Counted from the stretch's first letter, positions 1-19,690 are shown. The stretch: 64,000 nt of DNA from a virus (IMGVR_UViG_2508501001_000004:1-64000); one strand, 5' to 3'. Program-made: numbers and translations. The notes: generated by a model not told the origin, from the sequence alone.

Positions 1-378
1 TTACCCATGATCAATTCCCTTTACTTCCTGAACAGCTTCTTGCTTTGGTTTTTGATGAACGTCGGTAGAGTTTAATTCTGTTAGATAATTCTTCGCGCTG
101 GCATAAAGTGTTCTGGCCATATTTTCAAACATCGAATAAGTCATAACCATTCGTACCGCTCTCGGCAGTAACTCATATCCCTTACTAACCACAAAACTAA
201 ATTTCTGATCACCAACCTCCAATACAAGGGCCTCTGCTTGCTTTTCTACCTGCAGCATCAGAGAAAGGATTATTTTTGTTGCTTTTGCCTTTCCTTGAGA
301 CACCAAGAAAACAACAAAGCCGCTAACCAATAAAATTAACCCCCAGTAAGCTTGGAGGCCCGATAATACAATATCCAC
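1..378 (-). CDS. Putative holin (one N-terminal TM)
   Basis: Hydrophobic N-terminal helix, directly downstream of endolysin. Confidence 0.6.
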   Translation of the reverse strand: MDIVLSGLQAYWGLILLVSGFVVFLVSQGKAKATKIILSLMLQVEKQAEALVLEVGDQKFSFVVSKGYELLPRAVRMVMTYSMFENMARTLYASAKNYLTELNSTDVHQKPKQEAVQEVKGIDHG

Positions 379-418
379 TTTTATTTCTCCTTTTCAAATT
401 GGCAAGCACTTGCGAATA

Positions 419-1273
419 TTAAGCGCCTGTTGCACTTACAACAGCTGCAGTATCTCCCCAAGTCTTCCCGGAAAGGATTGTTTCGTTCGGATGTCCCACG
501 GGTCCACCCCCGACTATGACAAGATGCTCGGCTTTAAAAACGTCTGGCGGTGGGGTCTTATCATCAAATCTCAAAAAAACTGCACAGTTGCCAAGTTTGA
601 TTGACTCTCTTCGCGCCGGTACCAAGTAATCCTCAATGCCATGAGCTAAAACCGCTTCTTTCATCTCATAGCCCCTTTTCTTTTGTGTATTTCCACTGAC
701 ACTAACCTCGAAATGATCCCCAATCCCCTGGGCGATCGCTAAAGCAGCCTGATCCATCTTTTCCAAGATCGTGGCTTCCTCTGAATTAATGAAACCGTGC
801 TCAATGAGCACGGCCGGCATCTCTGTCCACTTTAATACATACCAATTTGCGTATTTGACACCACGGTCTGTCATTCCCAGCAGAGCCATTCTTGCCCGGA
901 TCGCCTTGGCAATCTTCTCCCCTTCGCCCCCGGCCGCAAGAGCATAGACCTCGTTCCCGTATGCTTTCGCAGCCGCTGAATTATTGTGGAAGGAGTAGAA
1001 TGCGTCACCGCCCAAAGAGTTGGCCGCTTTTACCCTATTTTTCAGGTCCAAATCAACGTTGAATGCTATCGGCGCGCAGAAGTCCTTGTCTGTAGTCCTA
1101 GTGAACTTCACTCTGAAGCGGCCTGTTGCTTCGAGAATCACTGCAATTTTCTTGGCCAACGCTAAAACATTATCCTTTTCCTTAGTTGTCGAGCCTACAG
1201 CTCCCGGATCTGCGCCGCCATGGCCTGGGTCGAAGATCATATCATATATCTTTAATTCACCCGAATGACTCAC
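419..1273 (-). CDS. Endolysin, Amidase_3 N-acetylmuramoyl-L-alanine amidase with C-terminal CWB2-like binding domain
   Basis: DPGHGG, KEKD, SFHNN, PAVLIEHGFI motifs; C-terminal LVIVGG..LSG..WGDTAAVV. Confidence 0.9.
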   Translation of the reverse strand: MSHSGELKIYDMIFDPGHGGADPGAVGSTTKEKDNVLALAKKIAVILEATGRFRVKFTRTTDKDFCAPIAFNVDLDLKNRVKAANSLGGDAFYSFHNNSAAAKAYGNEVYALAAGGEGEKIAKAIRARMALLGMTDRGVKYANWYVLKWTEMPAVLIEHGFINSEEATILEKMDQAALAIAQGIGDHFEVSVSGNTQKKRGYEMKEAVLAHGIEDYLVPARRESIKLGNCAVFLRFDDKTPPPDVFKAEHLVIVGGGPVGHPNETILSGKTWGDTAAVVSATGA

Positions 1274-1274
1274 C

Positions 1275-1640
1275 TCACTTTACAAAAATACTGGACAGAA
1301 ACTCAGGGTTAACATTCTGACCAATGGCCGCAAGCGTTATGATGAGCGCTAGAGTCACCGAACCCTTAATAATCCATTGTCCACCAGATGAACTCCAAAA
1401 CCCACTAGCCTCTTCGGCATATTCGCGAGCCGTTTCGAGAGCAGACACTCGCTTCTCCATTGTTTCTAACGTCTTAGAGGTTGTCTCCAACAGCTGAGTG
1501 AGCTGGGTGATAATAATCTTTAAATCTGTTATGGTCTCACTATGTGCGTTTAATCTGCGCTCAGCCACCTCCATCTGCTTATCTAGTCCTTTATGTGTTC
1601 TCTCACAGGATTGTTCTGTGACTAAGTTTTCCCCCGCCAT
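1275..1640 (-). CDS. XhlA-like lysis-associated protein (coiled coil plus C-terminal TM)
   Basis: Coiled-coil N-terminus, hydrophobic C-terminus, position before endolysin. Confidence 0.6.
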   Translation of the reverse strand: MAGENLVTEQSCERTHKGLDKQMEVAERRLNAHSETITDLKIIITQLTQLLETTSKTLETMEKRVSALETAREYAEEASGFWSSSGGQWIIKGSVTLALIITLAAIGQNVNPEFLSSIFVK

Positions 1641-1721
1641 AGCCCCACCTCACTCCTATTAGGCAATAAAAATAACGCCCTTTTTTAAAGCGTTTGCTGC
1701 ACATAATGAGTCTATTGTGCA

Positions 1722-1856
1722 TTAGTCAACATAGTCTATACCGGTAATCGTCTTATACTGTTCTTCAGTGATCTTGCTCTTAACCACAAATACTTTAACG
1801 TCATCAATAGAATAGTTTACTGGATAGTTACTTGACACAAATTTAAACCAATCCAT
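1722..1856 (-). CDS. xkdX: XkdX-family small protein (44 aa, not in ORF track)
   Basis: [44 protein letters not shown]; TAATG overlap with upstream gene. Confidence 0.75.
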
Positions 1857-2170
1857 TACATTAATCCCTCCATAACTAAAGTAAGAATGACCTGGGCGTT
1901 TTGACTCTTAAGATCATCAATCTTTTGCTCAATAGTTTGCTGTTCTGCGCTATTTTCATTGGCTATAGCTGTTTTTTCTGCCTGCCATTGTGCCTGTGTT
2001 AGTTCAGATATATCCTCATGCTGTGGCAGGTCGCAATCACACGCAAATACAAAACATGACCTATCCATTTTGTAACCCTGTGAACCCGGAACAATTGAAT
2101 CAATGTTGAGGGTTTTGTAATCACATTGTCCGAACATATTCGTGAAATTAACTATCTTACCGAATTTCAT
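1856..2170 (-). CDS. Tail fibre-associated protein (XkdW-like position)
   Basis: GGAGG RBS before MKFGKIV; C-terminal coiled coil [18 protein letters not shown]. Confidence 0.5.
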
Positions 2171-2189
2171 CTGTATTACCTCCTTAATA

Positions 2190-3862
2190 TTAATTGAAGA
2201 CATGGTGGAATATGGACGGTGATATACCGACACTAGTACCGGATTTACTTATAAAACTCACATATTGAGAGGAGGCGGCGGTCTCGGTTATTGCACCCTC
2301 CGGCATTACTGCCAACCATCTACCTGAACTACCATAATTAGCAGAATAAATCTCCGTACCAGATAGGGTGATTATCCACATCATCGAGCTAGAGCCATTG
2401 GTGGTGTACATATAAAGTCGATCCGTTGCCGTGTGCATTACACACACAGGTTCCCTACGACTAGAATTGAAAAATGATGTTATGGATGAGATGACTGTTC
2501 CATTTTTATCTGTTACATATGCGGCACGTGATGATGTATTATACCAGAACATCCTATCGACATTTACTGCCCTGAGTTCGATATATGAACTTGGTGTAAA
2601 TAGAACCGTCTTAATTACTGTCCCAGATGGGTTATATAAGTTGGCTTCACCTTGGGAACCCCTCACCCAGATCCCATCACCATCGACGAACGAAATCACC
2701 TTATTAATATCCACGAATACTATGGGATTCAGATATGCACTCACGGAGCCTTTCTTCTGAAGCGTACCAGAGACACCGAATATGTCCTTTCCACTCAATA
2801 TATTTGCCGGTATCAAGTCAGGGTCCCCGGATATAGTAATATTACTCGAATAGTACCCAGCATATTTAGTCTGTGCTGAAGTTCCCGGAGTTACTGTTCC
2901 TCCAGCCCCCCTACTGACCATGGTCCCGACTAATCCAGTATCTGCATCGTTGCTGAATGTCTTTCCTGCTAGTACATTATCAGCAACGGCATCACCCTCT
3001 GCACTAGCTTTTATAAAAAAACAATTATCAGATGTACTGTACCAAACTGTATAGGCTTTATCAGCGATTAAAGTTGGTGCTGTAGTTGTGCCTGGCTTAT
3101 ATAGTGATTTGGTATTTATAGTTGTTGGTGCCCCACTATTATTAGCAGACGCAATGAATGTTTTAGAATAGCCATTAGTTAATGTAGCAGTCGTAAGGTT
3201 AATGCGGTTGCCGTTCCTCCTGCGACTTGGTACACTACATCCGCCAAATGCGCATCAACAACAGTCTGATCAGCCTTAGTTTCAATAAGATTGGTCACTG
3301 TTGTAGCGAAATTGGGATCATCACCTAACGCCGCAGCTATCTCATTAAGCGTGTCAAGGGCTGCCGGCGCAGAATCCACCAAAGCGGCTACTGCCGCCTT
3401 TACAAAAGCTGTAGTAGCAATTTGCGTGTTATTAGTTGCCGTCACAGCTGTCGGTGCAGTTGGTGTTCCGGTAAAGACAGGCGAAGCCAAAGGAGCCCGA
3501 GTGACATCCGTTGGGTGAACATGGTCTCTCCTTGCCGCGGTAGCCGCAAAGCCTGCAGAAGCTGTGCCATTGGCGGCAGGATTAGTGCTGTCAAAAGCTA
3601 AGTGTGTGTGATCGGCCCTTGCAAGACTTGTGCTTGATCCAGCAGCATTAGCTGTTCCCAGGCCCCCCGAAGGAGCCGCAGTAGAAACAGGATCACTACC
3701 GCCAGGTCGGTGGGCATCAGCATGGGAACCTATCGCTCCTGCCGCATCCATCACCTCTTTTATTTTTTGGTCAATCACGTCAGCATTGTCATTAAAGTCT
3801 TGAATGTTGACAGTATCTGTTCCAGCGGGTTTCTTTAGTCCGTAGTTTGCTGTCGTTTGCAT
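2190..3862 (-). pseudogene. Tail fibre / receptor-binding protein split by a 1-nt frameshift near 3203
   Basis: ORF 3179-3862 continues in the -1 frame as INLTTATLTNGYSKTF...CFFIKASAEGDAVADNVLAGKTFSND into ORF 2190-2921. Confidence 0.75.
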
Positions 3863-3873
3863 AGTCTACCTCC

Positions 3874-4485
3874 TTACTCATAAACTCTGAGCTCATTCCA
3901 GCTCATAACATTCACGCTATTCCAAGTGAGATGTTTCAAAGAATCCCACCATGTATAGGAATACTTAAAACTGTACCCTAAATGGGCAGGCTTAATTTGT
4001 TCCAGCATCTGAATAAACCCTGGCATATTAGCAGGAATACCTTTTATTCCAATAAACCGAACCTCAAAGCGACACTCCGCCGGATATTCCATGACATCCA
4101 CCTCACCCCCAGAAAAGGCAGCTGCGGTGTCCATGATCATTTGTTGGGTTGTTGTACCGGAGCCACGCAGTTTAACCTTGATCTGCTCCCGCCTTCGCTC
4201 TATAGGCTTTGCCGGTTCTGTCTCTAAACCTAACTCACTTTCCCAATAATTTAAGCCCCATGTAGCCGTATCCACAAAGTATTGACTTAACACATTATCA
4301 ATAGCATACAAAAAAAGACCCATCTCATCCGATGCCGTCTCCTGGAGCTTTTCCATTTCTCGAATGCCCCGATAATACTCAGGCAAGTATCTCATGAGGT
4401 TAGGTGTCGAGTAATCAGGCTGATCCCCGTCGCCGCCATCCGTGCCTAAAAAAGTGGTGCCATAGAGTTGACTTCCGTATCCCAC
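3874..4485 (-). CDS. xkdU: Baseplate wedge protein, YmfQ/DUF2313 (XkdU-like)
   Basis: ATWGL..WE, IKPAHL motifs; paralog of 37282-37893. Confidence 0.85.
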   Translation of the reverse strand: MGYGSQLYGTTFLGTDGGDGDQPDYSTPNLMRYLPEYYRGIREMEKLQETASDEMGLFLYAIDNVLSQYFVDTATWGLNYWESELGLETEPAKPIERRREQIKVKLRGSGTTTQQMIMDTAAAFSGGEVDVMEYPAECRFEVRFIGIKGIPANMPGFIQMLEQIKPAHLGYSFKYSYTWWDSLKHLTWNSVNVMSWNELRVYE

Positions 4486-4489
4486 TGGC

Positions 4490-5041
4490 TTACACCCCCT
4501 TTAATTGATTCCAGGTTACCGGGCCTTTGGGCATGGCCTGAGCAGCTATAGCTTGAGCCACTCTTTGGGCAGTCCATAATCGTTGTGAGGTGACTGTTCC
4601 TGCTTCGGCCTCGGCTTGGGACACCGTACTCCAGGTGCTTGTGTGGGCCATTGTTCTTGTTGTTCCGTTTAACCTGAGATAGAGTCCTGAGGTTGTCGTC
4701 CATAGATCACCGTTAACTGGAGAAACTGGCGCAACCCCATGAGGTATGGTCATTGGAGCTTCATCGGTACTGGACTCAGAGAGGACTTTTTTTCCCGTCA
4801 CACCGCTCCAGGGGACGCTCTCGGCTGCCGCAGCCATATCAACCTTACCGTCATTATTCGTGTCATAAATGCTTTTCAGCATATCCCCAACTGTTTGGGC
4901 GGCGACGAGGACCTCATTTCCGTTATCTGTTCCAATATAAAGCTTTTTGGTATCTGTACAATAACCTAGCTCACCTATTTCCAGAGTCCCAATGCTTACC
5001 TCAAGCCCACGTCTAATCTGGATCAATACTTTTCTTGCCAT
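4490..5041 (-). CDS. Tail fibre-associated protein with Mtd_N/hyaluronidase-like N-terminus
   Basis: IQIRRG...GELGYCTDTKKLYIG motif; N- and C-termini shared with 37898-38392. Confidence 0.6.
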   Translation of the reverse strand: MARKVLIQIRRGLEVSIGTLEIGELGYCTDTKKLYIGTDNGNEVLVAAQTVGDMLKSIYDTNNDGKVDMAAAAESVPWSGVTGKKVLSESSTDEAPMTIPHGVAPVSPVNGDLWTTTSGLYLRLNGTTRTMAHTSTWSTVSQAEAEAGTVTSQRLWTAQRVAQAIAAQAMPKGPVTWNQLKGV

Positions 5042-5053: not shown

Positions 5054-6079
5054 TTAGAATGTTCCTCCATCCACAATGGATACCATCAACCTATTTCCGT
5101 TGGCCGTATCATAGATAATACTACTGGTATCAATATGGGCTTCTATGCCTGTGCTATTGACGAGGACTCCTTTCCCCGCCTTAGCACTCACCGTCGTTGT
5201 GCCAATAGTAATTCCGTTTCCTCCTCCTACCGTTAAGGTGACCGTATCGGCCTGACCGCCCCCAGTTAAACCATTGCCGGCAGTGATGGTCTGCAGGGCT
5301 CCCCCAGTTCTTACCCAAGCTGTTCCGTTCCAAGAGTAGACCTTCTGTTCATCATCAACGTAGCATGTCCAGCCTGTCTGAGGAGTATAAAACACCCACG
5401 CTCCGGATATCCATTCTGCTATTTGGTTCTGTTTACCCGCCCAGGCCCCGGTAGCCCCAGACGGTATAATATATCTATCACCCGTTGCCGGAGAACCTGG
5501 AGGGGCTGTAAGATTCTGATCCTTCACGCTAGCTTGAGGTTCGATGTTATGTTTAGCAAGCTCTATTTCGTTGCCAATTTTCTGAGCACTCCACAAATCG
5601 GTAATCGCCGTTCCGGAGTCATTAATGACGCGATGTTTTGGGGCATCATCAATGTGAGTTTTTATTTCAGCAGCAGTCTTTGTGTTGGTACCATCCGATA
5701 CTTTATTAACCTGACCGTTGCTGAGCTCTGATTTCTTAACCCTTGCATAAGTCGTTCCGTCAGCAATGTCATCTAAGGCACCTGTAAGATCTGTCAGTTT
5801 TTGAGCATTGACTTGATTCCAGTCCGTACCGTTATCAAAGTAGAGATAGCCACTATTAGCTCCGCCGGTAATATAATAAAGCCTTCCTAAGGCCCCAGCA
5901 TTAGGCCGAGCCGCTTCTGTTCCCGATAAGGCACGACCAACGAACGTATTTGAGACCCCGTCCCCAATATAAACTTCTTTTGTATCTGTGCAAAACCCCA
6001 TTTCTCCCGCTGGCAATGCCCCCAAGGCTGCCAATTCTGCCTTAGTTCCTCTCTTTATGCGTATTGTCTGTCCCGCCAC
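5054..6079 (-). CDS. DUF2793-containing tail protein
   Basis: Mtd_N-like start; APPGSPATGDRYII..ATGAWAGK..QIA..W.F..P..GW motif. Confidence 0.75.
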   Translation of the reverse strand: MAGQTIRIKRGTKAELAALGALPAGEMGFCTDTKEVYIGDGVSNTFVGRALSGTEAARPNAGALGRLYYITGGANSGYLYFDNGTDWNQVNAQKLTDLTGALDDIADGTTYARVKKSELSNGQVNKVSDGTNTKTAAEIKTHIDDAPKHRVINDSGTAITDLWSAQKIGNEIELAKHNIEPQASVKDQNLTAPPGSPATGDRYIIPSGATGAWAGKQNQIAEWISGAWVFYTPQTGWTCYVDDEQKVYSWNGTAWVRTGGALQTITAGNGLTGGGQADTVTLTVGGGNGITIGTTTVSAKAGKGVLVNSTGIEAHIDTSSIIYDTANGNRLMVSIVDGGTF

Positions 6080-6082: not shown

Positions 6083-6499
6083 TTATGCCTCCTCTCTAAT
6101 AAATCCACCGCCATCAATAATTCCATTGGCTTTATATCTTTCAATTTCTGTCTGGGTACGAATTACGCTTTCCTGCAGGCTGTTGATATCTTTGGCCTCT
6201 GCCATATCTCCAGGCGTCTCATAGGTTACATAGACTTTTTCTGTTTCGGCAAAGATTTTAATCGAACGTTTCCAAGGTGTTTCAGAGGGAATTGATACGA
6301 TAAAATTAGCCACCGGATCGCCTGAGAATTGAGGCCCTGTATAAACCCTGATTGTGCTGTTCGTAATGTTGTCGTGACCTAAAAAGCCGTTGTACACCCC
6401 ATCGTTAATGAATAATTCTTCTTCGACAGTATAACTGCTGCCATCGGGCTTTTTATTCAGCTTTTCTAAAAACTGATCAAGTTCCTCAGGATAGGGCAC
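6083..6499 (-). CDS. Conserved tail/baseplate-associated protein
   Basis: Paralog of 39434-39850 in the same position. Confidence 0.6.
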   Translation of the reverse strand: MPYPEELDQFLEKLNKKPDGSSYTVEEELFINDGVYNGFLGHDNITNSTIRVYTGPQFSGDPVANFIVSIPSETPWKRSIKIFAETEKVYVTYETPGDMAEAKDINSLQESVIRTQTEIERYKANGIIDGGGFIREEA

Positions 6500-6503: not shown

Positions 6504-7541
6504 TCATACCCCCAGTCCTACGGTTTCAAGTACCGGTATTTCTTCATCCGCCAAAGCTACATTTACACTGCCGCCATTGACTGTCAAGTTTGTATAATCA
6601 AGGACACCCGGTGTACTCAGCAATATGGTTCCAACTTTAGCATAACTGATATAGGTGCTGGCAAAAGCTGTATCCTGCAGATAACTTCCCAGGGCTGCCC
6701 TAAAAGCATCTGTCACTCCTTGGATAGCATAACCTGCCGCCAAAGTGACCACCGCTGAAACACCAATCTCTTTAGCTGCTGCCGAAACAACGGTCACGGC
6801 AGCGCCGATAGGGCGCACAGTCTCAATATAGTCTGAGACATCGTCCACCAAGATTGATGTGGCCGGCTGTTTTCCAGCATCCACGATAACAAGCTTCACG
6901 CTTCCTGACCCTGCCCACAAGGGGAAAACTTTCGCATCTCCCACGCCAGCTACTTCAAGGGCCCATTGTCGATATTGAGCCGCATTCCCTGAGGTCGCCG
7001 GCTGACGAACCCGCTGCAGATACCGCTGCCTGAGATTGTCATCCGTCTCTGTATCCGCTCCAGGAACCAAAATATCGATCAGCTCTGCTCTCACAAGGCC
7101 ATTAATGTAGTTGATGGGCAGCAAAGTCCCCGCCTTCTGGTTTCCTATGCTTCCGGCAATCTCACACTCCAAAACATACTGACCGATTGAAATTCTTTGG
7201 ATAGTCTGATAGTTTACCTGCTCAATGGAAAAGCGGCTGCCCAAAGCCACATCCAGGGGTGAATCATTCTGTCCAAAAAACTGACCCATCCGCTGTGCCT
7301 TGGTCGCCGGTTTACGAGTTACCCCATAATCCGCCGTCCTTAATTCCAGATAGGCTCCACTTGAGGTTTGAGCTGAGAATAGTCTCAGATTAACCTCCAG
7401 GTCTGCATAAGCCTGAGCTAGTTCCGCCGCAGCCGGAGATAGGGCATCATAAATTATGCTTCCCTCTCGTTTGTCCAGATCACCTGGAACCCGATCCAGC
7501 ATTCTCGATAAAATAGCTTCATAGGTTTGATCTTCATACAC
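6504..7541 (-). CDS. xkdT: Baseplate J-like protein
   Basis: DKREGSIIYDALSP, ETDDNLRQR, SGNAAQYRQWA motifs. Confidence 0.9.
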   Translation of the reverse strand: MYEDQTYEAILSRMLDRVPGDLDKREGSIIYDALSPAAAELAQAYADLEVNLRLFSAQTSSGAYLELRTADYGVTRKPATKAQRMGQFFGQNDSPLDVALGSRFSIEQVNYQTIQRISIGQYVLECEIAGSIGNQKAGTLLPINYINGLVRAELIDILVPGADTETDDNLRQRYLQRVRQPATSGNAAQYRQWALEVAGVGDAKVFPLWAGSGSVKLVIVDAGKQPATSILVDDVSDYIETVRPIGAAVTVVSAAAKEIGVSAVVTLAAGYAIQGVTDAFRAALGSYLQDTAFASTYISYAKVGTILLSTPGVLDYTNLTVNGGSVNVALADEEIPVLETVGLGV

Positions 7542-7943
7542 TTATGGGTTCACCTCCTGAGTCATCTCAAAGCTTCCGTAATTGCTGATGACTGTAAACG
7601 CAATGAGTAAACTATCCCCTATGATCGTTATCTGGATATTCTCAATACCGGTAATTCGATCATCCTGAGTTAAAGCTTCCCGGATCATTCGCGCAACCTC
7701 TGGTTTCAAAAAGAGCGGATTGCTGCCAATCAGATTCTCCAGCTCAGAACCATAATTTGCTGTGTAAATCAGGTGCTGAAAGCGTGGGGTTTGCAGAATC
7801 TTAAAGGCCGCCTGCTGAACTGCCTCAAGGCCGTCCAGTCTGCCCACAATTCGTTGTTTGGCTGCATCCAGTTTCCAAGTGAGTGACGGCTGCTCTATTT
7901 CTTCGATCCTATCCTTGCTTATACTTCCTCCCACTGGGATCAC
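7542..7943 (-). CDS. xkdS: DUF2634 baseplate protein
   Basis: T.RF.HLIYT.NYGSELE.LIG, EALTQDDRI motifs. Confidence 0.85.
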   Translation of the reverse strand: MIPVGGSISKDRIEEIEQPSLTWKLDAAKQRIVGRLDGLEAVQQAAFKILQTPRFQHLIYTANYGSELENLIGSNPLFLKPEVARMIREALTQDDRITGIENIQITIIGDSLLIAFTVISNYGSFEMTQEVNP

Positions 7944-9959: not shown

Positions 9960-10028
9960 TTTATCACCTGCCTTATCTAGCATACTTCTGGGAAATTTCA
10001 TAAATTTAGAATTTCAGGCCTCTAACCC

Positions 10029-12044
10029 TTATATCGGAAACATTCCATTCGTGGAAGAAACTATCTCCGTCTCCAGCATCGTCTTAATCTTAGTTACAAT
10101 GGTATCTACGTTCTGTCCGTTGTTGACATCTCCGTTGTGCATATAATTGGCTGTTGGCGTAAGGGTCACAAAATTCTGGATGTTCTTCATTTCAGCCAAC
10201 TCGCGCATGGTTTTTATGTCTTCACTGGAAATATCGACGGTGTTCTCGATTCTACCAACTTCATTGACACGATTGATGTTTGAGTTTTGGTTCCAGCTAT
10301 CGGGGTTGAAGGGGCTATCAGCTGGCGGTTCTTGAGGACGAAATGCATTGTTTAAGGCTCCGAAAGCATCTTGAACATGGCTTACAGCAAAATTGCCTGC
10401 TTTTTTCCCGATAGTCTGTCCTGTGGTAAAGGCGTCACCATAATCCACTTGATTAAATCTCATGAGCTTCACAACATCTGCCTCACTCTTAAGGCTGTCT
10501 CTCTTCCCTTCAAGCTTGGTCAGTAAATTATCCATGCCCGAGGTAATATTTACTTTTAATCCTGGTATATAGTTAAGAAGATTCTCAATGCCTTTGGCAA
10601 GGTTAGCCATGTATTGAAGAGAGTTTATTGATAAGTCGTAAAACAGCTTTTGTACCGCATATATGGGATCCTTCAATACATTGGCGAAGAACTCTGCAAA
10701 CCCCAGAACTATATTTGCCAAAAAAGCAAACCTGTTAAATAAGAATCCAAAAAAAATCCCAAAAAGCCCTCCAATGAAACCGATGACTTCTACGGTAGCA
10801 TCGCCCCATCTCACCATAGCGTAAAGCACCAAGCCGATGACAGCGCCAACCAGCAGGATCTGCCAATTCAATACAACCCAACCCGCCACAGCTTGCCATA
10901 CAGGATTTGCCAACAGACAAAGACTTCGGTATAGTTCCGGTATTTTGCTCACGGCCCATAACGTCAGCGCCGAACCAACCATTGCAAGAATAGGAGCTAT
11001 GAAATCCCAATTCTGCTGTACCACTCCACCTAGCCAGATGAGGCCATTGACAATCCCGGCAACTCCCCCAACAATAATAGTTAATCCGGCACTCAGTCCG
11101 TCAAAAAACGGCTGAAACTTTCCTTCCTGAAAAGCATCATTCAACATGATAATAAGCGGCGCAAGAGCGTCCAAAGCCTGTACTCCCGCATTGGCAAAAC
11201 TAGATTCCATATTATTCGTGAAAACTTCCATCTGCTTTACCGGAGACTTCATCATTTCATCAAAGGCTACCTGTCCCATTTTCTGTTTCTCCAGGAGATG
11301 CTCAAAGGCCTCAATAAAGCCTTCTATATCTCCGGACTTGCCCAGTTCATTAATTTTAAAGGCCTGGATATCGGACTTTGACATATTAAAGCGTTCGCCC
11401 AATGAGGTAATATCACCCGACATCGCTTCGTTTAAGACAGAGGCGGCTCCCTCGATTCCATTTCCTGAAGTGTCAAAGGCATTTAAACGCTGAGTTAAGT
11501 TATTCAGCTTGGTTAATTGATCTACGTTTTGAGTGGATGAGAAAAAAGAGAGGCTGCTCTGCAGGGATTTATTAATATCTTGCCCTGCAGCAAGGGCCTC
11601 CTTTTTAAACTTATTGAACATGGCAGTTCCTATTTCACTATCTCCAGTTCGTGCGATAAACATATCTTGCGTTTTCCGCTGTTCCATCGCACCGCCGATA
11701 GTCGCTTCACCTAAGTCCTTAAGTCTCTGAAAGGTTAGATACTCGCCGAGCAAAGATCTTATTGATGAAATGAAGCCTTTTGCTCCCTCTTGACCTGCAG
11801 TGAAATGATTGTTTAACTCAGCTTGTGCATTTGCAGCGCCGCTGGTCGCGTCTTGCAACCCGGTCTCAACAAAAGCAAGCCGAAGCTGCGCTGATGCCAC
11901 GAGATTTGTGATTTGCGCATTTTGGGCAGAGGCATTGGTTAACTCGTTCATGGCGGAGATGCTTATATTTAGTGACTGGGTAATATTTTGAAGTGGCTGT
12001 GAAAAGACATCAAACATTCTGAGAGTAGCGCTCACGGTTGCCAA
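10029..12044 (-). CDS. Tail tape measure protein (671 aa)
   Basis: Long helical protein with hydrophobic mid-region, between chaperone and xkdP. Confidence 0.85.
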   Translation of the reverse strand: MATVSATLRMFDVFSQPLQNITQSLNISISAMNELTNASAQNAQITNLVASAQLRLAFVETGLQDATSGAANAQAELNNHFTAGQEGAKGFISSIRSLLGEYLTFQRLKDLGEATIGGAMEQRKTQDMFIARTGDSEIGTAMFNKFKKEALAAGQDINKSLQSSLSFFSSTQNVDQLTKLNNLTQRLNAFDTSGNGIEGAASVLNEAMSGDITSLGERFNMSKSDIQAFKINELGKSGDIEGFIEAFEHLLEKQKMGQVAFDEMMKSPVKQMEVFTNNMESSFANAGVQALDALAPLIIMLNDAFQEGKFQPFFDGLSAGLTIIVGGVAGIVNGLIWLGGVVQQNWDFIAPILAMVGSALTLWAVSKIPELYRSLCLLANPVWQAVAGWVVLNWQILLVGAVIGLVLYAMVRWGDATVEVIGFIGGLFGIFFGFLFNRFAFLANIVLGFAEFFANVLKDPIYAVQKLFYDLSINSLQYMANLAKGIENLLNYIPGLKVNITSGMDNLLTKLEGKRDSLKSEADVVKLMRFNQVDYGDAFTTGQTIGKKAGNFAVSHVQDAFGALNNAFRPQEPPADSPFNPDSWNQNSNINRVNEVGRIENTVDISSEDIKTMRELAEMKNIQNFVTLTPTANYMHNGDVNNGQNVDTIVTKIKTMLETEIVSSTNGMFPI

Positions 12045-12144: not shown

Positions 12145-12327
12145 CTATTTTTTCTTAAGCTTTGCCCTATCCTGCCTTTCCTTTTTAACTCGAATATCAA
12201 TCATGGCATAGATAGCGGCTTTAGCTTCTCTCGATTTCTTCACGAGCTCATCCGGGGGGATCCGCAGTTCGTGGAGAGCATAGTAAGCGTAATTCCACTC
12301 ACCATCGCCCTCCTCAATTAGTTTTTT
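12145..12327 (-). other. -1 frameshift extension of tail chaperone (G/GT type); slippery A AAA AAC at 12321-12327
   Basis: GTA AAA AAC TAA; -1 frame open as KLIEEGDGEWNYAYYALHELRI...KKK*. Confidence 0.75.
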
Positions 12328-12740
12328 ACCTCATCCATTAAGTCTCCCAGGCTTTGGTCAAAACCGTTCAGTTCTTGCACCTTCTGAACAAGGGTTGCAT
12401 ATTCTCCCGGAAACAACATCTTCCTCAAAAGATCCTCCGCCCCCATGACACCGTAGGATTTTTGCAGCTCCGCGTTTTTTAAATCCGGAAAAACAACACT
12501 GGCCACTAAGATTTTTATCAGATAGGCATTCTGGTCAGTTTCAACCTGCTGTGATCCATTTTTTCCTTTAACTCGTTTTGTGGCCGCTTTGCGATACTCT
12601 TCATTCTCCGTTTCGGTTATATTGTGAATCTTCCAGGGTATTGGCTTGCCATCCGGCCCTTTGAAGCGCTCAGAGACAATTACCTCTTCGGTAACATCGG
12701 ACTGGACATTCTGCGCAAAAAATGCCTGTAAATCACTCAT
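12318..12740 (-). CDS. xkdN: Tail assembly chaperone XkdN-like
   Basis: VFPDLKNAELQKSYGV..AEDLL..ML.PGEY motif. Confidence 0.85.
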   Translation of the reverse strand: MSDLQAFFAQNVQSDVTEEVIVSERFKGPDGKPIPWKIHNITETENEEYRKAATKRVKGKNGSQQVETDQNAYLIKILVASVVFPDLKNAELQKSYGVMGAEDLLRKMLFPGEYATLVQKVQELNGFDQSLGDLMDEVKN

Positions 12741-12850: not shown

Positions 12851-13318
12851 TTATCTGCTTGCCGGTTTATTAAATTGATCCAGCAAATCTGCATCTTCAA
12901 AGGTAAAGGGCATCTCTTCTTCTATGGCATCATCGCTGCTTGCATCAAAGGACGCAATAATAACACTATCCAAGTTGCATCTCTTTAAAACCGTGGTCTG
13001 TTTTCCTACACTTGATGTCGGATCTTCATTAGTAATCTGCAAATCAAAATAGAAATCCCTGCCGGTCTTGATATAGTCCAGCATCAAAGCTCTGAATAAA
13101 CTTGTAACGTAATAAATAGTTAAGGTTCCACTGCCGGACCAGCCCGTTGATTTTTTGGCGACATTCATTCTCCCCAGTATGGGAATATCGGTTTTAGTTT
13201 TTTCAATCGTGGCTTCTATGGATTTAGCATAAAACAATTCTTCCACTCGCCCATTTATTGTGGCAAAGGCACGGGCCTGTTTGCCGATAATGGCATCTTC
13301 AGACTTCATAAATGGCAT
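12851..13318 (-). CDS. xkdM: Tail tube protein
   Basis: GWSGSGTLTIYYVTS, EEEMPFTFED motifs. Confidence 0.9.
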   Translation of the reverse strand: MPFMKSEDAIIGKQARAFATINGRVEELFYAKSIEATIEKTKTDIPILGRMNVAKKSTGWSGSGTLTIYYVTSLFRALMLDYIKTGRDFYFDLQITNEDPTSSVGKQTTVLKRCNLDSVIIASFDASSDDAIEEEMPFTFEDADLLDQFNKPASR

Positions 13319-13319
13319 T

Positions 13320-14636
13320 TTAGTTCACCTGCGCTTTCACATAGATTTTTTCCACACTATCAATCGGCTGGGTGTAGGCCTCTATAAAGACCGCATCCCC
13401 TTCGTTGCCGGCTATGACTGTAATGTCAGACTGGGAATCAAAGTTTTGAATCGCGTTGATTTCCTGCAGGGTCTCCATATAGCGGATACACTCGCCCTTA
13501 AGCAGATTTCTGCCATCATCATTGTTGTTTACTTTCCCAATGTAAAACTCAGAAAAGGTGCTTTCCAGGTAGTTATTAATGCCATCCAGCACCCTGATCA
13601 CTCGATTCTTGCTGAAGGCTTTGCCTTTGTCCGAGGTGAAGCTTGTCAGGGTATTAATATCTTGCTCTACCAGCGCCCGGTTATCATTAGCGGTAAACAA
13701 GAACTCCCCTGCCTTCAGTGCTGTAATAATCTGGGTGTTGGTATATCTGGGCGCCACATCCACTGCTCCATCATAAGCCTGATAAGTAAGTGATTCATTC
13801 ACTTGCGCACCTGACGTTGCACCGGCTACCCAGACAGTGGCTTGAGCTGCCGTAAGGGTTGTTCCGTCAATTAAGATGACACCATTCTTGACACTGATTA
13901 CGCCTTCATAATCGGCCAAAGGATAATTCTCTAAAACCACCTGTATTTTCTTGCCTTCATCATCCCGCAGACGTTTGCAAAAGGCTTGGAACATGGCTTT
14001 AAGGGTATCATCTGTCGAAGGCAGGGCCATGGTGTTGAAGTCGTAAATCTCCACTGCGGCCAAATAGTCAACATAAGCTTGATTAGTGATCGTGCCGTCT
14101 GCGCCATTGACAAGGGGCACACCGGCGGTCTCTGTCAAACTCCCGCTGCCAGAGAATATAACCCAATCATTTGCGGCAAGTCCTGCAATATTCGTTACAA
14201 TTTGCTTATCCATCTCAGTCCCATCGACTAAGGTGGATACATCAAACTTTGTATCATCATCAATATTTTCCTGAATGACCAGGGAAATGTCGTTGCCGCG
14301 AATCCCGCCCCACTTCGCCGTAGCTGTCAGGTTTTCTATGGTTACTGCGGCCTTTGTGCCGGCATTAAGCCGATAAAGAAGCAAGGTTTTGGCTCTCTTC
14401 AAGGCTTCTTTAATCAAGAGCAATCTAGGATCTGTAATGCTGTAACCCAGCATGGAGAAGGTATCCTCTCCGGCTTCAATAGAAATGATTTTATTAGGCT
14501 CTCCCCAGGAGAGCATTAAGGGCAGAGTAGCTATGCCGCGCTCCCCAAGAGTTCCCAGCGCTTGGGGATTAGACTCAAAGTTTATATAAACCCCTGGTCG
14601 CACTTTGTTTTGTATAGTGAATGTACCTGCTGCCAT
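13320..14636 (-). CDS. xkdK: Contractile tail sheath
   Basis: NKVRPGVYINF, QDINTLTSF..K.K.FSKNRVIRVLD motifs. Confidence 0.95.
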   Translation of the reverse strand: MAAGTFTIQNKVRPGVYINFESNPQALGTLGERGIATLPLMLSWGEPNKIISIEAGEDTFSMLGYSITDPRLLLIKEALKRAKTLLLYRLNAGTKAAVTIENLTATAKWGGIRGNDISLVIQENIDDDTKFDVSTLVDGTEMDKQIVTNIAGLAANDWVIFSGSGSLTETAGVPLVNGADGTITNQAYVDYLAAVEIYDFNTMALPSTDDTLKAMFQAFCKRLRDDEGKKIQVVLENYPLADYEGVISVKNGVILIDGTTLTAAQATVWVAGATSGAQVNESLTYQAYDGAVDVAPRYTNTQIITALKAGEFLFTANDNRALVEQDINTLTSFTSDKGKAFSKNRVIRVLDGINNYLESTFSEFYIGKVNNNDDGRNLLKGECIRYMETLQEINAIQNFDSQSDITVIAGNEGDAVFIEAYTQPIDSVEKIYVKAQVN

Positions 14637-14637
14637 T

Positions 14638-14820
14638 TCACCCAACCTCCTTAGTTAAAAAATCGTCAAGTATTGCTTTGATTTGATGACAAGTGTATTT
14701 CTGTCTTTCATCTAAAAGCGCTTGCAAAGCATCCTTTGGGGTATACTGTTTAGACTGTATTATTTGCTGTTTCGTGTAGGCCTTTGCGGTCTGCACTTTC
14801 TTTCCTTCAACCACGTACAT
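14638..14820 (-). CDS. Small conserved protein upstream of sheath
   Basis: YTKQQI..SK.Y...DAL.ALL motif; paralog of 50769-50954. Confidence 0.6.
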   Translation of the reverse strand: MYVVEGKKVQTAKAYTKQQIIQSKQYTPKDALQALLDERQKYTCHQIKAILDDFLTKEVG

Positions 14821-15226
14821 ACCCCTCCTGTTTCATAGACTGCATTAGCCGATCTGATTCAGCCCTGCGCAGTACATAAAAATTATAGGCTACAAAAAAA
14901 TGAAGTACCCCGTCAACAATTTCATGACGCATTCCGGTACCCCTGACAAGCCTGCCGTCCACGCTGATCAGCTCCATCTTGTCATAGAGCTGCTCTGCCA
15001 TGTCATGCAGGTTTCCATTACTTCCTCCATAATAATGAAGATCAAAGAAATGAAACCGTTGATACCGCTGGCCAAGCAGTTGCTCCTGGGACGCAGAAAG
15101 GAGCTTTACAAAAAAACAAGGTTCTTCAAAATCCTCCGCAAGTTCTTCTTCATAAATGCTTATATCGGGAAAATTCTGATCCAATACCGATATAATGCTG
15201 TCGCGAATGAGGTTGACAGTTATCAA
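14807..15226 (-). CDS. Tail terminator/completion protein (XkdJ-like position)
   Basis: PCFFVKL, DGVLHFFV.YNF; paralog of 50941-51366. Confidence 0.7.
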   Translation of the reverse strand: MITVNLIRDSIISVLDQNFPDISIYEEELAEDFEEPCFFVKLLSASQEQLLGQRYQRFHFFDLHYYGGSNGNLHDMAEQLYDKMELISVDGRLVRGTGMRHEIVDGVLHFFVAYNFYVLRRAESDRLMQSMKQEGYVRG

Positions 15227-15756
15227 TAAAATCCCTCCTTTGGTGCAGACCCTTCAACCGGCCTAACCCCTTTGAACTGGAATCCCTGGTTTTCCTTTTT
15301 CTCCTCACTAAATAAAAAAGCCTTGGATTCTTTTAACGATTTGAGCTGATCGTCTAAGCCGACTTTAATTGACCCGTTCTCATTTAGTTCAATCTTTGTT
15401 TTGTCCAGCAGACTAGCAACAATATCTGGATCGTGGGCCTTGCCAGTTAGAGCCAACTTAAGGGCATTAGTTAGCGTAATGGCCTTCACGTCAGCCTCAT
15501 AGTTCTCCTTAGCCTTTTTATTTTCACTTCGGAGGTTAATAATCTCAACCTGAAGGCCGGCAGTATCCACTTTCTTTAGGTCTTCAATCTGCTTATCCCG
15601 GGTAGCAATGTCCTTTTCCAGCTGCTTTTTAGCGCCGTTCACTTCATCGAAACGTAATTTTGGAATATAGCTCCTCAGCTCAACTTGAGACGCTGCCGCG
15701 GCCTTCACTGCTAATTCCTCTCTCAACCCGAGGGCAAGAAACTGCTCTTTATTCAT
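15223..15756 (-). pseudogene. C-terminally truncated capsid scaffold (phage GP20 family)
   Basis: MNKEQFLALGL..YIPK.RFDEVN; ends at the RBS of the next gene; paralog 54025-54666 is longer. Confidence 0.75.
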
Positions 15757-15775
15757 GATTATCGTCCTTTCATCG

Positions 15776-15857: not shown

Positions 15858-15879
15858 TTACCTTTTGGCTCGAGTGCTT

Positions 15880-15975
15880 TTCCATTTCTGGAGCTTCTGT
15901 ACACTTTAAAATTTGGAAGTCATCCAAGGTTTTCAGAACATCCTAGCCTGGAATTTCTTTATACCGCCTCCCCGC
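15880..15975 (-). pseudogene. Remnant of MuF minor head protein linker
   Basis: RYKEIPG*DVLKTLDDFQILKCTEA aligns with RYKKILGKDAPKTFDDFRDLKYTEA of 55516-57312. Confidence 0.6.
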
Positions 15976-16100
15976 TCTCCTCCATTTTGGCCTAAACCGA
16001 ATAGTCATTGAAGCAGCTCATTTCTTCTTCTCTTTCTCCAGCCTTCCCAACTCTTCTTAACATCTGTCATCCAAGGATAGTTGCTGACTACAGCTTCATT

Positions 16101-17300
16101 CTATATAATTCCACGGTTGTTTTTGGCATCTTCAATTACTGCACTTTCCTTAATAAGGATATCCCGGTTAAAACGAAAATCAACCGCCTCATTCGAGTAA
16201 TCCCGGCCGGTGGTATTGGCAATATGAGCATCAATAAACCAGCGCAGCTGTTCTAAACTCGCTTGAAATTCAGATTCGATAATATTGGCATCCATGTCCA
16301 GACCAGCATAAAGAACTTTAAGATCGATTCCCGACGGGCTGTTTCCAATCTTGTCAGGCTCGAATAAAACGCCTCTGCCAAATTCATAGATATCTTTGCG
16401 GTTCATCTCCATATGAACTTTATATGCCACATAACTAGAATTTGTCAGATCCTCTAACTTGTTGACATTGTCACTCTTTCGGGCGTCATAGTCATCAATC
16501 AGCTCTTTGATCAGATCCAAAAGAGATTGCTCTTCTTCGTTATATTTAAAGGCAATGAAGGGTACACGCTCCCAATTGACTGGTTTTACGCTATCTCCCT
16601 GAACAACTGTAAAGTGCGCCCCTTCTTCTCCTTCCTCTATATCGGGAACTAGTCCGTACTGTCCCCCGCTTTGTAGAATATATCGTTTTACGCCGTTTAT
16701 ATCCCACCATTCAATCTTCGTTACGACAGTTCGCCGTGTTTCTTCGTAGGTCTCCACCTCATAAACTCTGATCACAGCCTGCAAATCTCTATGTGCTGCA
16801 TTATACCAAAGGGGAATGATTTCTTCCGATGGGATCCTCATAAAGGACAATTGGCCAGTTTCGTCATAGTAGACGTGCAGCCAGGCAATACCTTTCTTGA
16901 TTGCCTCTTTTCCAATATTCTGCAGCATTCGAAGCATCGACTTTCCCCAAAAAGTGGCAAGCTGCTTTTGATAGTCTTGGATGTCTGTCTGTACGCTCAG
17001 CGGTTTGGAAAACAAATATCCAACTTTCTGATCTACCAGCTTGCGAAAAAAGCCATTGACCAATTTATTATTTGATAAATTCCCAACAATTTCTTTTTCC
17101 CCACTGGCCCCGATCTCCCTTCGTTCACGGTTCAGGATGTCTGTTTTATTTCGGTAATAATTCTCCCCTTTGATCATCTCTTTTCGCTTATGAGACGACT
17201 TCCACTCGCTAACCTTTATAGAGATAATCTGCTCCAAGTTCGTCAAATTTTTTACGCCGGCCACGCTCATTGTGGCGATGCGCTCATTTTCTATAATCAC
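16101..17300 (-). pseudogene. SPP1-gp6-like portal with internal 40-aa in-frame deletion and premature stop
   Basis: Colinear with portal 57490-58974; homology continues past TAG (NEAVVSNYPWMTD). Confidence 0.8.
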
Positions 17301-17477
17301 GTCAGTCTCACCTCTTTTCCGGATAGTTTCTGATTTATCAGGCTGCGTGTCCAATGGGATAATTAATGGAAAACAGCTCTGAAGAATCCCTTGCCAGCCA
17401 ATAAAAAACGGCTAACAGAGGAATAGTCAATAAATATACAATAATCTTTGATCAAGTATAGTTTTGTTATGCAATAT

Positions 17478-17590
17478 AAAAAGCGCTCCTTTCGGAACGC
17501 TCTTAAATCATATTTTTGCATTATAGAAATTTTAACATAGCTAAAAGGGATTGTACAGGGCAGGACTTTGGGCATCAATCGGGCAGGACC
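17478..17590 (-). promoter_or_regulatory. Putative late promoter with GTCCTGCCC direct repeats and downstream hairpin
   Basis: Repeats at 17558-17566 and 17581-17589; TATAAT-like -10; hairpin GAGCG-TTCCGAAAGGAG-CGC followed by a T-run. Confidence 0.55.
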
Positions 17591-18129
17591 CGGACATTTT
17601 CATTCAAAGCATCTGCTCCGAAAAGCATAATCTTTAGTTTATTCACCAGGCGATTTTTATTTCTTCTTACAGTTTTTTCATCACATTCAAGATCCGAGGC
17701 AATGCTTTCAATAGTCATTCCATCCCAGTATTTCATGGGAACTATTTCATAATATTTATCATCTTTAATCACTTCAAGGGCCCTGTCAATCCTCATTACC
17801 TCCTGCCTCGTCCGCATCATGCTTGACTTTATACCTTGCGTATATCTGTCAATATCCAATCCATGACTTCCGGTATTACTCGTTGAAAACCTTATAATGT
17901 CTTTTGAGCGATTATTCGTAGGAGTTGTATAGGCTTCAGGATCAAATAAGAATTCTTCATCTTGAGCAACCTTTAGCTTCAAAGCTTGGTAATTATACAG
18001 CAGGGTTTCTGTTTCTTGAAAGAAATTACGTTCAACAAGTGTATCTTGCGTCGCAGCTTTTGCGCTTTCTTGAGCCACCTTATTTACAACCGTTTCAATT
18101 AGTTTAAGAACTTCATTATTGAGTTTCAA
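17575..18129 (-). CDS. RinA/ArpU-like late transcriptional activator
   Basis: C-terminal sigma70-r4-like HTH (KYWDGMTIESIASDLECDEKTVRRNKNRLV); TTG start after GGAG. Confidence 0.75.
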   Translation of the reverse strand: MKLNNEVLKLIETVVNKVAQESAKAATQDTLVERNFFQETETLLYNYQALKLKVAQDEEFLFDPEAYTTPTNNRSKDIIRFSTSNTGSHGLDIDRYTQGIKSSMMRTRQEVMRIDRALEVIKDDKYYEIVPMKYWDGMTIESIASDLECDEKTVRRNKNRLVNKLKIMLFGADALNENVRVLPD

Positions 18130-18400
18130 TTTTCTCCACTCCTCTCCTTTATTTAACTTACGGCTTACATACAATCTCCCTTGATTCCAGTTGCTTACAT
18201 CCTCCCCTCTCTGCCACTTCATTTTTAACCAGCCCAGTCTCCATTTATCCTAGTACCGAATATTCCCGGTGACAGTCGCTCTTCTGTAACCTTTCCAACT
18301 CAAGTAAGCCTCTAACTGTAAGATTGACTGTGACTGCCTGTTGCTTACGTGACATTTTCTTCTCCCTGTCTCACTTTCAAATTATCATTACTTATTCTTA

Positions 18401-18802
18401 GATAATTTAATTATCAAAAACGCCAAAAAAATAAACATCCTACAAAACATTGACGATAAAATAATTATCACATATAATGTTAATTAGATAAAAAAATTAT
18501 CATTTCAATGCTTTTCGCGGCTCCCGTAAAGATCAGGAAACAATATTTCAATTGGTTCATCAAAATACCTAGACATTTTGAACATTAAATCTCTGCCAGG
18601 ATTAAATGTTCCATTCTCAATCATCCGCACATAAACCTCAGAGATCCCCAAGTCTTTGGCAACCTCTTTTTGTTTGCCCTTTTTCTTCCTACACGCGGAG
18701 AAGAAGTTGCGCCTTTTTTGCATTTCCTAAGTTCACCTCCTTGTGTTTTGATTATATTTGATAATTATATTATCGTCAAGATATTTTGTTAATATAATTA
18801 TC
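18401..18802. promoter_or_regulatory. Repressor operator array GATAA-N5-TTATC and twin sigmaA promoters
   Basis: Palindromes at 18401, 18455, 18487, 18760, near-match at 18788; TTGACG-N17-TATAAT at 18450-18478 (+) and 18779-18751 (-). Confidence 0.8.
18505..18723 (-). CDS. Cro-like XRE HTH regulator
   Basis: KQKEVAKDLGISEVYVRMIENGTFNPG HTH; divergent from CI. Confidence 0.85.
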   Translation of the reverse strand: MQKRRNFFSACRKKKGKQKEVAKDLGISEVYVRMIENGTFNPGRDLMFKMSRYFDEPIEILFPDLYGSREKH

Positions 18803-18823
18803 AAAAAGAAGGGACGTTGCTCC

Positions 18824-19231
18824 ATGATTGGTGAAATCCTTGCCGAATTAAGAAATAGAAGAGGGCTTACTCAAGACCAGATGGCTGAGGCCCTAAATGT
18901 AAAAAGACCTCGCTACAATTCTTGGGAAAACAATATAGCTAAGCCAGACATAGAAATGCTCCAAAAGATAGCTAAATTTCATAATGTTACACCCGACTAT
19001 ATTCTTAATTTTGAATCTGACAGCCCAGTCCCCTCCTGGGCCACTGCAAAAGATAAGCGCGATTTCAAGAAAATGCTCGAAGAAGACGATGACTTAATGT
19101 TTGATGGCATCCCTATCGAAAGCGATGACCGCCAGAGAATCAAAGACGTTCTCACCGGCCTTTTCTGGGAAGCCAAACAGATGAACAAACGCAAAAAGAA
19201 ACCTGACAGCACAAACGACACCAAGAAATAA
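18824..19231 (+). CDS. CI/ImmR-like XRE repressor
   Basis: LTQDQMAEALNVKRPRYNSWENNIAKPD HTH; followed by ImmA. Confidence 0.9.
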   Translation: MIGEILAELRNRRGLTQDQMAEALNVKRPRYNSWENNIAKPDIEMLQKIAKFHNVTPDYILNFESDSPVPSWATAKDKRDFKKMLEEDDDLMFDGIPIESDDRQRIKDVLTGLFWEAKQMNKRKKKPDSTNDTKK

Positions 19232-19270
19232 ATCCTGGTGCCGTTTTTTATAAAGAGGTGCAACTAAAAA

Positions 19271-19690
19271 ATGGACAAACTTATACATACTTTAACCCGT
19301 AAGTATAAAACCAATAACCCCTTCACTATCGCTGAACATCTTGGAATTCATATTCGTTTTGCTGATCTGGGGGAGCACACTCGAGGTATTTATTATAGTA
19401 AGCTCAGACGTAGATTTATCGTAATTAATTCTAGGCTGAATTCTCATTGGCAGCGATTCATATGCGCCCACGAGCTGGCACACGACAGACTTCACAGGGG
19501 TCTAAACCGCTTTTTCTTAGATAAATACTCCTTTTCAAACGCCAATAAGTACGAAAGACAGGCAAATCGATTCGCCGTTCAACTAATTTTAATTAATACA
19601 AATATACATTCAGGTGAGACCATTGAAGACTTTTTTCTTAAAAATGGCGTTCCGACCGAGATGATTAAATACTATACAAGAAACTCTTAA
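19271..19690 (+). CDS. immA: ImmA/IrrE metallopeptidase anti-repressor
   Basis: RFICAHELAH HExxH; E.QAN.FA motif. Confidence 0.9.
   Translation: MDKLIHTLTRKYKTNNPFTIAEHLGIHIRFADLGEHTRGIYYSKLRRRFIVINSRLNSHWQRFICAHELAHDRLHRGLNRFFLDKYSFSNANKYERQANRFAVQLILINTNIHSGETIEDFFLKNGVPTEMIKYYTRNS

Follow-up and report, generated by a model that had tools for sequence, protein, structure and literature searches.

Is a contractile-tail gene cluster that lies beside a complete prophage and still carries scraps of head genes a phage in decay or a weapon in the making? The question is raised by the left part of a viral stretch of 64,000 nucleotides (nt), IMGVR_UViG_2508501001_000004:1-64000 (hereafter, the window), which corresponds to G000:C1:5376193-5440192 in a single-contig genome of 5.66 Mb with 44% G+C. 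The cluster, which we call element 1, occupies window positions 1 to 19690 on the minus strand, except for the Xre and ImmA genes at its right end, which lie on the plus strand. In the sense of transcription, its minus-strand genes comprise a small helix-turn-helix (HTH) gene, a sigma-like gene, a portal remnant, a scrap of a MuF gene, a scaffold remnant, a PBSX-type contractile tail, and a lysis cassette (Table 1). The closest named relatives of its tail sheath belong to Desulfosporosinus species. Judging from its genes, we consider element 1 to be probably an early-stage R-type tailocin locus that arose by domestication of a temperate PBSX-type (XkdK-sheath) myovirus and loss of its head.

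We analyzed the genes of element 1 with PHROG, Pfam, and NCBIfam profile scans. An earlier note on this DNA had described all tail, baseplate, and lysis genes as open save for one fiber frameshift, and this description proved accurate. Every tail open reading frame (ORF) has the length of its counterpart in two complete related prophages of the same genome (elements 2 and 3) and is full length relative to the metagenome contigs L059 and L060 as well, the exception being the distal fiber. Apart from this strain's frameshifted distal fiber, the contractile-tail gene set is complete, and it is accompanied by a lysis cassette and a switch of its own, whose functions are predicted from their protein families. 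Of the capsid, packaging, replication, and integration genes, no functional copy is present; only the portal, MuF, and scaffold remnants are left. In keeping with the earlier note, our PHROG and Pfam scans of positions 1 to 19690 recovered no integrase or replication gene, and the integrase and the ∼14-kb replication module of element 2 have left no remnants in element 1. The note had also asked whether the missing head genes might lie just left of the window. We found none there, since host genes start at that point, and a capsid like that of L059, the contig closest to element 1 as a template for its head, is absent from the whole genome. Elsewhere in the genome, head genes occur solely in elements 2 and 3.

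The losses were mapped against two templates, namely, element 2, which is collinear with element 1 at ∼75% nt identity, and the closer contig L059. Against these templates, element 1 shows at least five deletions in the head region. One removed terS and terL, leaving just 220 bp between the sigma-like gene and the portal gene; another is a clean in-frame loss of 40 codons inside the portal gene; a third took the portal 3′ end together with the first 1.1 kb of MuF; a fourth took the MuF 3′ end and a 58-amino-acid (aa) ORF, and the MuF scrap now runs directly into the scaffold leader; the last took everything from scaffold codon 177 to the gp10-like neck gene, including the capsid gene and two adaptor genes. 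Template alignment confirmed what had been listed as lost (the terminases, most of MuF, and the scaffold 3′ end through capsid, connectors, and gp10). That the losses were separate events also stood, but the count of at least three was too low. As noted before, the scaffold frame runs into a ribosome-binding site at ∼15235: its TGA stop (15223 to 15225) overlaps the TTG start of the tail terminator gene (15226), directly behind an AAGGAGG site. The last deletion left this ribosome site and the start of the first tail gene undamaged, and no deletion touches the ∼15 kb of tail and lysis genes.

We looked for other carriers of the headless form via exact-protein look-ups and cluster listings, and we mapped Logan contigs of public runs to window positions 1 to 20000. 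Copies of element 1 with 96 to 99% identity were found in metagenomes, mainly from wastewater, solid waste, and groundwater. Short contigs from two metagenome assemblies are 96 to 98% identical to element 1. Among them, L063 is gap-free across the scaffold-terminator junction (15226); in L067 and L068, the HTH and sigma-like genes are followed immediately by what is left of portal, MuF, and scaffold; L065 and L066 span the sheath to the tape measure; and the baseplate, fiber, and lysis genes lie on L060. Logan contigs placed element 1 in three further metagenomes, with identities mostly >99% in a wastewater run and less close ones in the solid-waste and groundwater runs. They covered 29 to 30 of the 30 bins of positions 1 to 20000, and those from wastewater and solid waste bridge the MuF junction. 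The relatives share the deletion junctions that their contigs cover, and the deletions are therefore older than the split of these lineages. Fixed synteny across the genus, a check proposed in the earlier note, was not observed, as the junction was found in 0 of the 41 other species searched. Matches in these 41 species and in 16 genomes of the order were only partial and fell in complete phages; a match in G021 shares the sigma-like gene alone and has a full head behind it. Since none of the 41 other species has the junction, the domestication is young and restricted to one lineage.

Selection was evaluated by comparing this genome with a metagenome lineage of 96% identity in which the deletion junctions are the same, using bootstrap intervals and Fisher tests. 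Over 3231 codons of tail and lysis genes, we counted 118 synonymous and 77 nonsynonymous differences, corresponding to a ratio of nonsynonymous to synonymous divergence (dN/dS) of 0.185 (bootstrap, 0.14 to 0.24); the sheath gave 0.07 to 0.09, and the tube gave 0. The portal remnant has accumulated 22 synonymous and 30 nonsynonymous differences (dN/dS, 0.33), and its dN is threefold that of the tail (0.031 versus 0.011; Fisher p = 0.027 versus the tail). In a three-taxon rate test, amino acid change in the portal of element 1 was about twofold faster on the deep branch than in its nearest phage relative. The test is valid for portal and scaffold alone, because in the tail genes L059 and element 2 group together to the exclusion of element 1. 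Comparisons with elements 2 and 3 were discarded for dating, as their synonymous divergence (dS) is saturated and silent on the time since the deletions.

The distribution of frameshifts was also examined. Among carriers, they occur only in the remnants and between genes, apart from the fiber of this genome. The premature stop of the portal remnant is common to the carriers, a 1-nt deletion at 16810 splits the portal frame in relatives, the groundwater population has an insertion at 17333, and more 1-nt indels are found in the dead portal tail and in the MuF scrap. In the tail ORFs (∼13 kb, several populations), the indels amount to one in-frame 9-nt change and the fiber shift of this genome. 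An apparent 2-nt indel in L065, within the chaperone gene, directly adjoins a stretch of N and was rejected as an artifact. Taken with the dN/dS of the tail, the faster portal and its lineage-specific frameshifts indicate that the tail is kept while the head decays. This is not the outcome that the earlier note had named as refuting, in which the tail genes would decay neutrally like the portal. In the host lineage, which is shallow, it is thus the headless form that is under selection. The proposal in the note that this locus would make R-type tailocins is supported by the complete tail set, the shared junctions, and the constraint on the tail genes.

The scaffold remnant seems to be under as much constraint as the tail genes, with a dN/dS of 0.15 that derives from just 18 differences and no indel in the contigs aligned or among the Logan indels listed. 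This constraint may be due to chance at low divergence. The truncated gene may also persist as a leader of the tail operon, with its translation coupled to that of the first tail gene; we consider this idea because of the low dN/dS, the lack of indels in the carriers compared, and the overlap of its stop with the terminator start.

Several points weigh against a tailocin. The particles and their killing activity are predicted from sequence alone. The assignment of the sigma-like regulator is built on matches under the curated cutoffs and is accordingly putative, as is the late promoter of the tail operon. No RNA run is present among the public runs listed as carrying element 1. The junction DNA was not found in the 41 other species of the genus, so element 1 is not an old, fixed weapon. 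Moreover, the distal fiber is frameshifted in this genome, which may disable this strain's copy. Finally, both the portal remnant and the scaffold remnant have dN/dS values below 1, which is unexpected for long-dead DNA, and divergence is low (dS, ∼0.06 to 0.1), hence the time span over which selection was observed is short.

Part of these observations would suit an ordinary cryptic prophage in decay, whose head was hit first by chance and whose tail seems constrained only because little time has passed. The fiber frameshift would then possibly be the first sign of tail loss, and both the constraint that lingers in the remnants and the confinement of element 1 to one shallow lineage, with carriers that diverge by just 1 to 4%, are compatible with such an account. 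We nevertheless find it unlikely, given that the tail, the lysis genes, and the switch have escaped at least five independent deletions as well as the loss of the integrase and the early region, and that the operon is still joined. The pooled tail dN/dS, obtained over 195 substitutions, is far under the neutral value, indels spare the tail ORFs of several populations, and the fiber is intact in relatives. Element 1 might instead act as a tail donor, whose terminator-capped tails join the heads of element 2 or 3 and alter the host range of the virion. Two complete relatives with adaptor and neck proteins do reside in the same genome, and element 1 has kept its terminator, which is 70% identical in aa to its element 2 counterpart, and lacks only the head-side joining proteins. 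However, there is no evidence of coinduction, its switch and late regulator are unlike theirs (21% identity between the sigma-like proteins), and element 1 has its own lysis cassette and switch, like free-standing tailocins. We give this reading very little weight. A dual role, in which element 1 is both a weapon and an exchangeable tail cassette that docks onto the heads of element 2 or 3, is also most improbable, if marginally less so; if true, it would give elements 2 and 3 a second host range. Two other candidates were rejected: a PBSX-like defective prophage that packages host DNA (phibacin), given the missing terminase and capsid genes and the nonfunctional portal, and an extracellular contractile injection system of the Afp/PVC type, as the annotated genes include no ATPase- or cargo-like ORF and a phage tape measure, a LysM protein, a switch, and a lysis cassette are present.

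If element 1 is an early-stage tailocin locus, as we favor, its operation can be sketched by analogy. The systems behind this analogy are ImmR/ImmA switches and PBSX, with its Xre repressor and its sigma-like late factor. DNA damage would activate ImmA, leading to removal of the Xre repressor. The HTH gene and the sigma-like gene would then be transcribed from near-consensus promoters; two such promoter-like sites are found ahead of the gene for the 72-aa HTH protein (18792 to 18751, 11/12 matches). The sigma-like factor, for which gene callers place the start at 18129 (184 aa), would drive a long late operon, which now opens with the defunct portal and scaffold genes and continues directly into the terminator gene of the tail. 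Headless tails would form, the producer cell would be lysed by the amidase together with the XhlA-like protein, and the free tails would bind related cells via the variable distal fiber, contract, puncture the membrane, and kill. The particles of this strain would possibly be blind on account of the fiber frameshift, unless the latter is a sequencing error or other fibers suffice.

We made two further observations on the regulatory region. The spacer between the sigma-like gene and the portal, the stretch where a late promoter is expected, contains a 96-bp segment (17372 to 17467) that is missing in the 96%-identical relatives. A 71-aa ORF in this spacer (17363 to 17578) was treated as noncoding, given its lack of a family match, its odd composition, and the 96-bp indel in relatives. 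A relative of ImmA in Desulfosporosinus paludis SB140 was also set aside, as it sits in an unrelated remnant without a tail cluster.

Analysis of the distal fiber revealed that the ORFs at 3179 to 3862 and 2190 to 3254 are halves of one gene, as an intact 479-aa metagenome protein (P0130) spans both. P0130 matches frame −1 up to position 3194 (98%) and frame −3 beyond it. At ∼3193, the boundary between the conserved shaft and the variable tip, the relatives carry one extra base (135 nt in wastewater run X2 versus 134 nt in this genome), and their distal fiber is intact. The frameshift is real in the assembly, although it could be a sequencing error; the strain's sole other data set, run X1 (5.84 million letters), resembles the assembly itself and is not an independent check. 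The fiber tip is replaced between lineages as a block together with the following ORF, with breakpoints at ∼3194, 2818, and 1731, and that ORF (1856 to 2233) is probably an allele-specific fiber chaperone. Such block exchange matches by analogy the pattern typical of receptor-binding genes of tailocins and phages, and tailocin fibers are known to diversify by recombination, e.g., in carotovoricin (PMC13195805). In one wastewater run, two different continuations were seen at 3972 to 3976, which suggests that several fiber alleles occur in one population.

We compared element 1 with its complete relatives. Element 2 is a complete prophage of ∼59 kb that starts at window position ∼23090 and contains terminases, portal, MuF, scaffold, capsid, adaptors, tail, and lysis genes, a replication initiator, a helicase, methyltransferases, Xre/ImmA genes, and a large serine integrase. 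Element 3, also complete, lies at G000:C1 ∼1,086,800-1,138,300 (loci L054 to L056). In contig L059 (Logan SRR22334942_34953), the head module is complete and has the same gene order; the portal and sheath of this contig are 70% and 82% identical in aa to the portal remnant and sheath of element 1. In L059 and elements 2 and 3, the order is that of element 1, with sigma-like gene, terS, terL, portal, MuF, scaffold, capsid, adaptors, gp10-like gene, and terminator, and the likeness continues through sheath, tube, and chaperone; all three are complete in the compared region, whereas element 1 lacks the deleted segments. Elements 1 and 2 are 82% identical in the sheath, ∼52 to 59% in the portal, and 29% in the tape measure. 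Because synonymous sites are saturated and the portals share only this identity, element 2 is a distant cousin and not the parent of element 1. The earlier note had cast it as an intact sibling that could serve as an ancestor-like template. It is indeed intact, but neither sibling nor ancestor fits, and L059 is the better template for the head.

How does element 1 relate to known systems? The diffocin of Clostridioides difficile is the only widely recognized R-type tailocin of Gram-positive bacteria, and Gram-positive tailocin prophages are described as retaining capsid and head genes (PMC10538166). Like diffocin, element 1 is a headless contractile-tail cluster in Bacillota, with its own regulators, a fiber-type receptor-binding protein, a lysis cassette, and an expected SOS induction. 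It differs in that particles and killing have been demonstrated for diffocin, whereas element 1, compared here by description, is known from its genes alone. Unlike diffocin, it also retains pseudogenes of portal, MuF, and scaffold, has a complete related prophage 3.4 kb away, and is found in one shallow lineage. The tail families and their order are those of PBSX of Bacillus subtilis and of the R-type tailocin prophages of solvent-producing clostridia (PMC10538166), with an XkdJ-like terminator, a sheath, a tube (DUF2001), an XkdN-like chaperone, a tape measure, a LysM protein, a YqbQ/XkdQ protein, a DUF2577 protein, a sheath initiator, and a baseplate J protein. The Xre-type repressor, the sigma-like late regulator, and the XhlA-like and amidase lysis genes are shared with PBSX-type elements, too. 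However, PBSX and the clostridial tailocin prophages retain the full head and packaging module, which element 1 has lost.

Element 1 resembles the R-type pyocins and other Gram-negative tailocins, such as carotovoricin (PMC13195805), in lacking capsid, packaging, replication, and integration genes and in having its own regulation and lysis. Gram-negative tailocins have unrelated phage origins (P2- or Mu-like); they are old, and their positions in the chromosome are conserved and fixed, whereas element 1 is young. They are not known to contain head-gene remnants; element 1, in contrast, retains the scars of each deletion. Gram-negative tailocins are well studied, with old loci from which the traces of origin are gone, and few tailocins have been recognized in Gram-positive bacteria. 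Element 1 belongs to this known class, and its value is that of an unusually legible intermediate with templates and natural replicates. It is a Gram-positive PBSX-type cluster that lost its head so recently that the scars persist, and the phage templates, together with natural populations that document the subsequent stages, namely, independent portal decay and fiber-tip swaps, make the order of events in the birth of a tailocin reconstructible from sequence. A literature search combining tailocin and Desulfosporosinus returned no papers. Element 1 is a testable candidate bacteriocin in these sulfate-reducing bacteria, which are of interest in groundwater, mine drainage, and wastewater.

Table 1. 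Features of element 1, with positions in the window
Feature	Position	Strand	Evidence or remark
125-aa protein downstream of endolysin	1..378	-	phrog_15303; N-terminal hydrophobic segment, residues 1-31
Endolysin, N-acetylmuramoyl-L-alanine amidase	419..1273	-	Pfam Amidase_3, E = 4e-39; PHROG endolysin families
XhlA-like lysis protein	1275..1640	-	Coiled coil and C-terminal membrane segment, residues 88-108
125-aa ORF after fiber	1856..2233	-	No family match; within segment 2818-1731, swapped together with fiber C terminus
Distal tail fiber, C-terminal (receptor-binding) part	2190..3254	-	354-aa stop-to-stop frame; 65% aa identity to P0130 residues 221-400
Distal tail fiber, N-terminal part, 227 aa	3179..3862	-	98% identity to P0130 residues 1-223
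Baseplate/fiber-attachment protein (Mu Gp48-like)	3874..4485	-	phrog_521, E = 6e-56; Phage_Mu_Gp48 on 96% relative
Short fiber-like protein	4490..5041	-	Pfam Mtd_N domain
Fiber protein, Mtd_N + DUF2793	5054..6079	-	Pfam; 82% aa identity to element 2
Baseplate/fiber adaptor (XkdU position)	6083..6499	-	phrog_18608, E = 1.5e-50
Baseplate J-like wedge	6504..7541	-	phrog_6, E = 4e-72; Baseplate_J on relative
Sheath initiator (gp25-like wedge)	7542..7943	-	phrog_120; PF10934 on relative
DUF2577 baseplate protein (XkdR position)	7940..8296	-	phrog_579; PF10844 on relative
YqbQ/XkdQ-like baseplate hub	8296..9282	-	Pfam YQBQ, E = 5e-126
LysM tail protein (XkdP position)	9294..10001	-	phrog_380, Pfam LysM
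Tape measure	10029..12044	-	phrog_1068, E = 9e-116
Tail assembly chaperone, XkdN-like	12318-12740 (with extension, 12145..12740)	-	phrog_389
Tail tube	12851..13318	-	phrog_365, E = 1e-55; identical protein in two metagenome assemblies
Tail sheath	13320..14645	-	phrog_279, E = 5e-146
Small conserved tail protein	14638..14820	-	phrog_966
Tail terminator, first intact gene past the head deletions	14807..15226	-	Pfam Phage_tail_terminator_8, E = 8e-38
Scaffold remnant	15223..15756	-	Pfam Phage_scaffold; 176 of ~213-242 residues, C terminus deleted
MuF minor head protein remnant, 75 bp	15892..15966	-	tblastn to element 2 MuF residues 375-399, E = 7e-4; blastn to L059 MuF
Portal pseudogene	16014..17354	-	40-codon internal deletion; stop at 16101-16103 (codon 418); homology continues to 16014
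Sigma-70 region-4-like late regulator (putative)	17575..18222	-	phrog_36; weak Sigma70_r4_2 and TIGR02937 matches below cutoffs
72-aa HTH protein (Cro position)	18505..18723	-	Pfam HTH_3
Xre-type repressor	18758..19231	+	Pfam HTH_3, E = 3e-17
ImmA/IrrE-type metalloprotease (anti-repressor protease)	19271..19690	+	Pfam Peptidase_M78, E = 5e-19

Among the remaining genes of element 1, the chaperone gene is overlapped by an extension frame without a start (12145 to 12330, 61 aa from stop to stop), as in chaperones made by programmed frameshifting. In the lysis cassette, the 1275-to-1640 gene is 97% identical in nt to its metagenome relatives, and the XhlA likeness of its product is suggested by the architecture of the protein; the product of the last gene (1 to 378) is a possible lysis accessory.

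The left flank of the window contains a few small ORFs for membrane proteins, followed by the host genes, which comprise a lysine riboswitch, a DHDPS-family gene, a LysR regulator, and a BCCT transporter. The riboswitch (L001:17694-17869), located upstream of the DHDPS-family gene, marks the first host gene on this side of element 1. On the right, we found no integrase remnant beyond ImmA. The 3.4-kb gap between ImmA and the left end of element 2 (19700 to 23090) harbors a gene for a 332-aa protein with PG_binding_1 and LysM domains (21737 to 22735), a weak DnaB_2-like fragment (21121 to 21414), and a small membrane ORF. A transfer-messenger RNA (tmRNA) gene (L002:18093-18444; Rfam, 147 bits) overlaps the 3′ end of the integrase gene of element 2, placing the integrase in ssrA. 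Near element 1, we found no extended attachment (att) repeat of the tmRNA end; the sole match is an 11-nt core at 23079 to 23095, which fits the left end of element 2 and is likely its left att site. Element 1 might have occupied this ssrA site before element 2 did, an idea that no att copy or integrase scrap supports.

Two further observations concern the complete prophages. Element 2 carries two genes of the homing-endonuclease type that flank the tube gene, one separating it from the sheath gene and the other from the chaperone gene (HNH phrog_374 and phrog_18411, window positions 48760 to 49443 and 47456 to 48175, respectively), both of which element 1 lacks. Elements 2 and 3 share a 10.7-kb portal-to-sheath block, including the HNH gene, at 96% identity and are 67 to 89% identical in the rest, which suggests a recent exchange between these coresident prophages; the terL of element 3 is 96% identical to that of L059.

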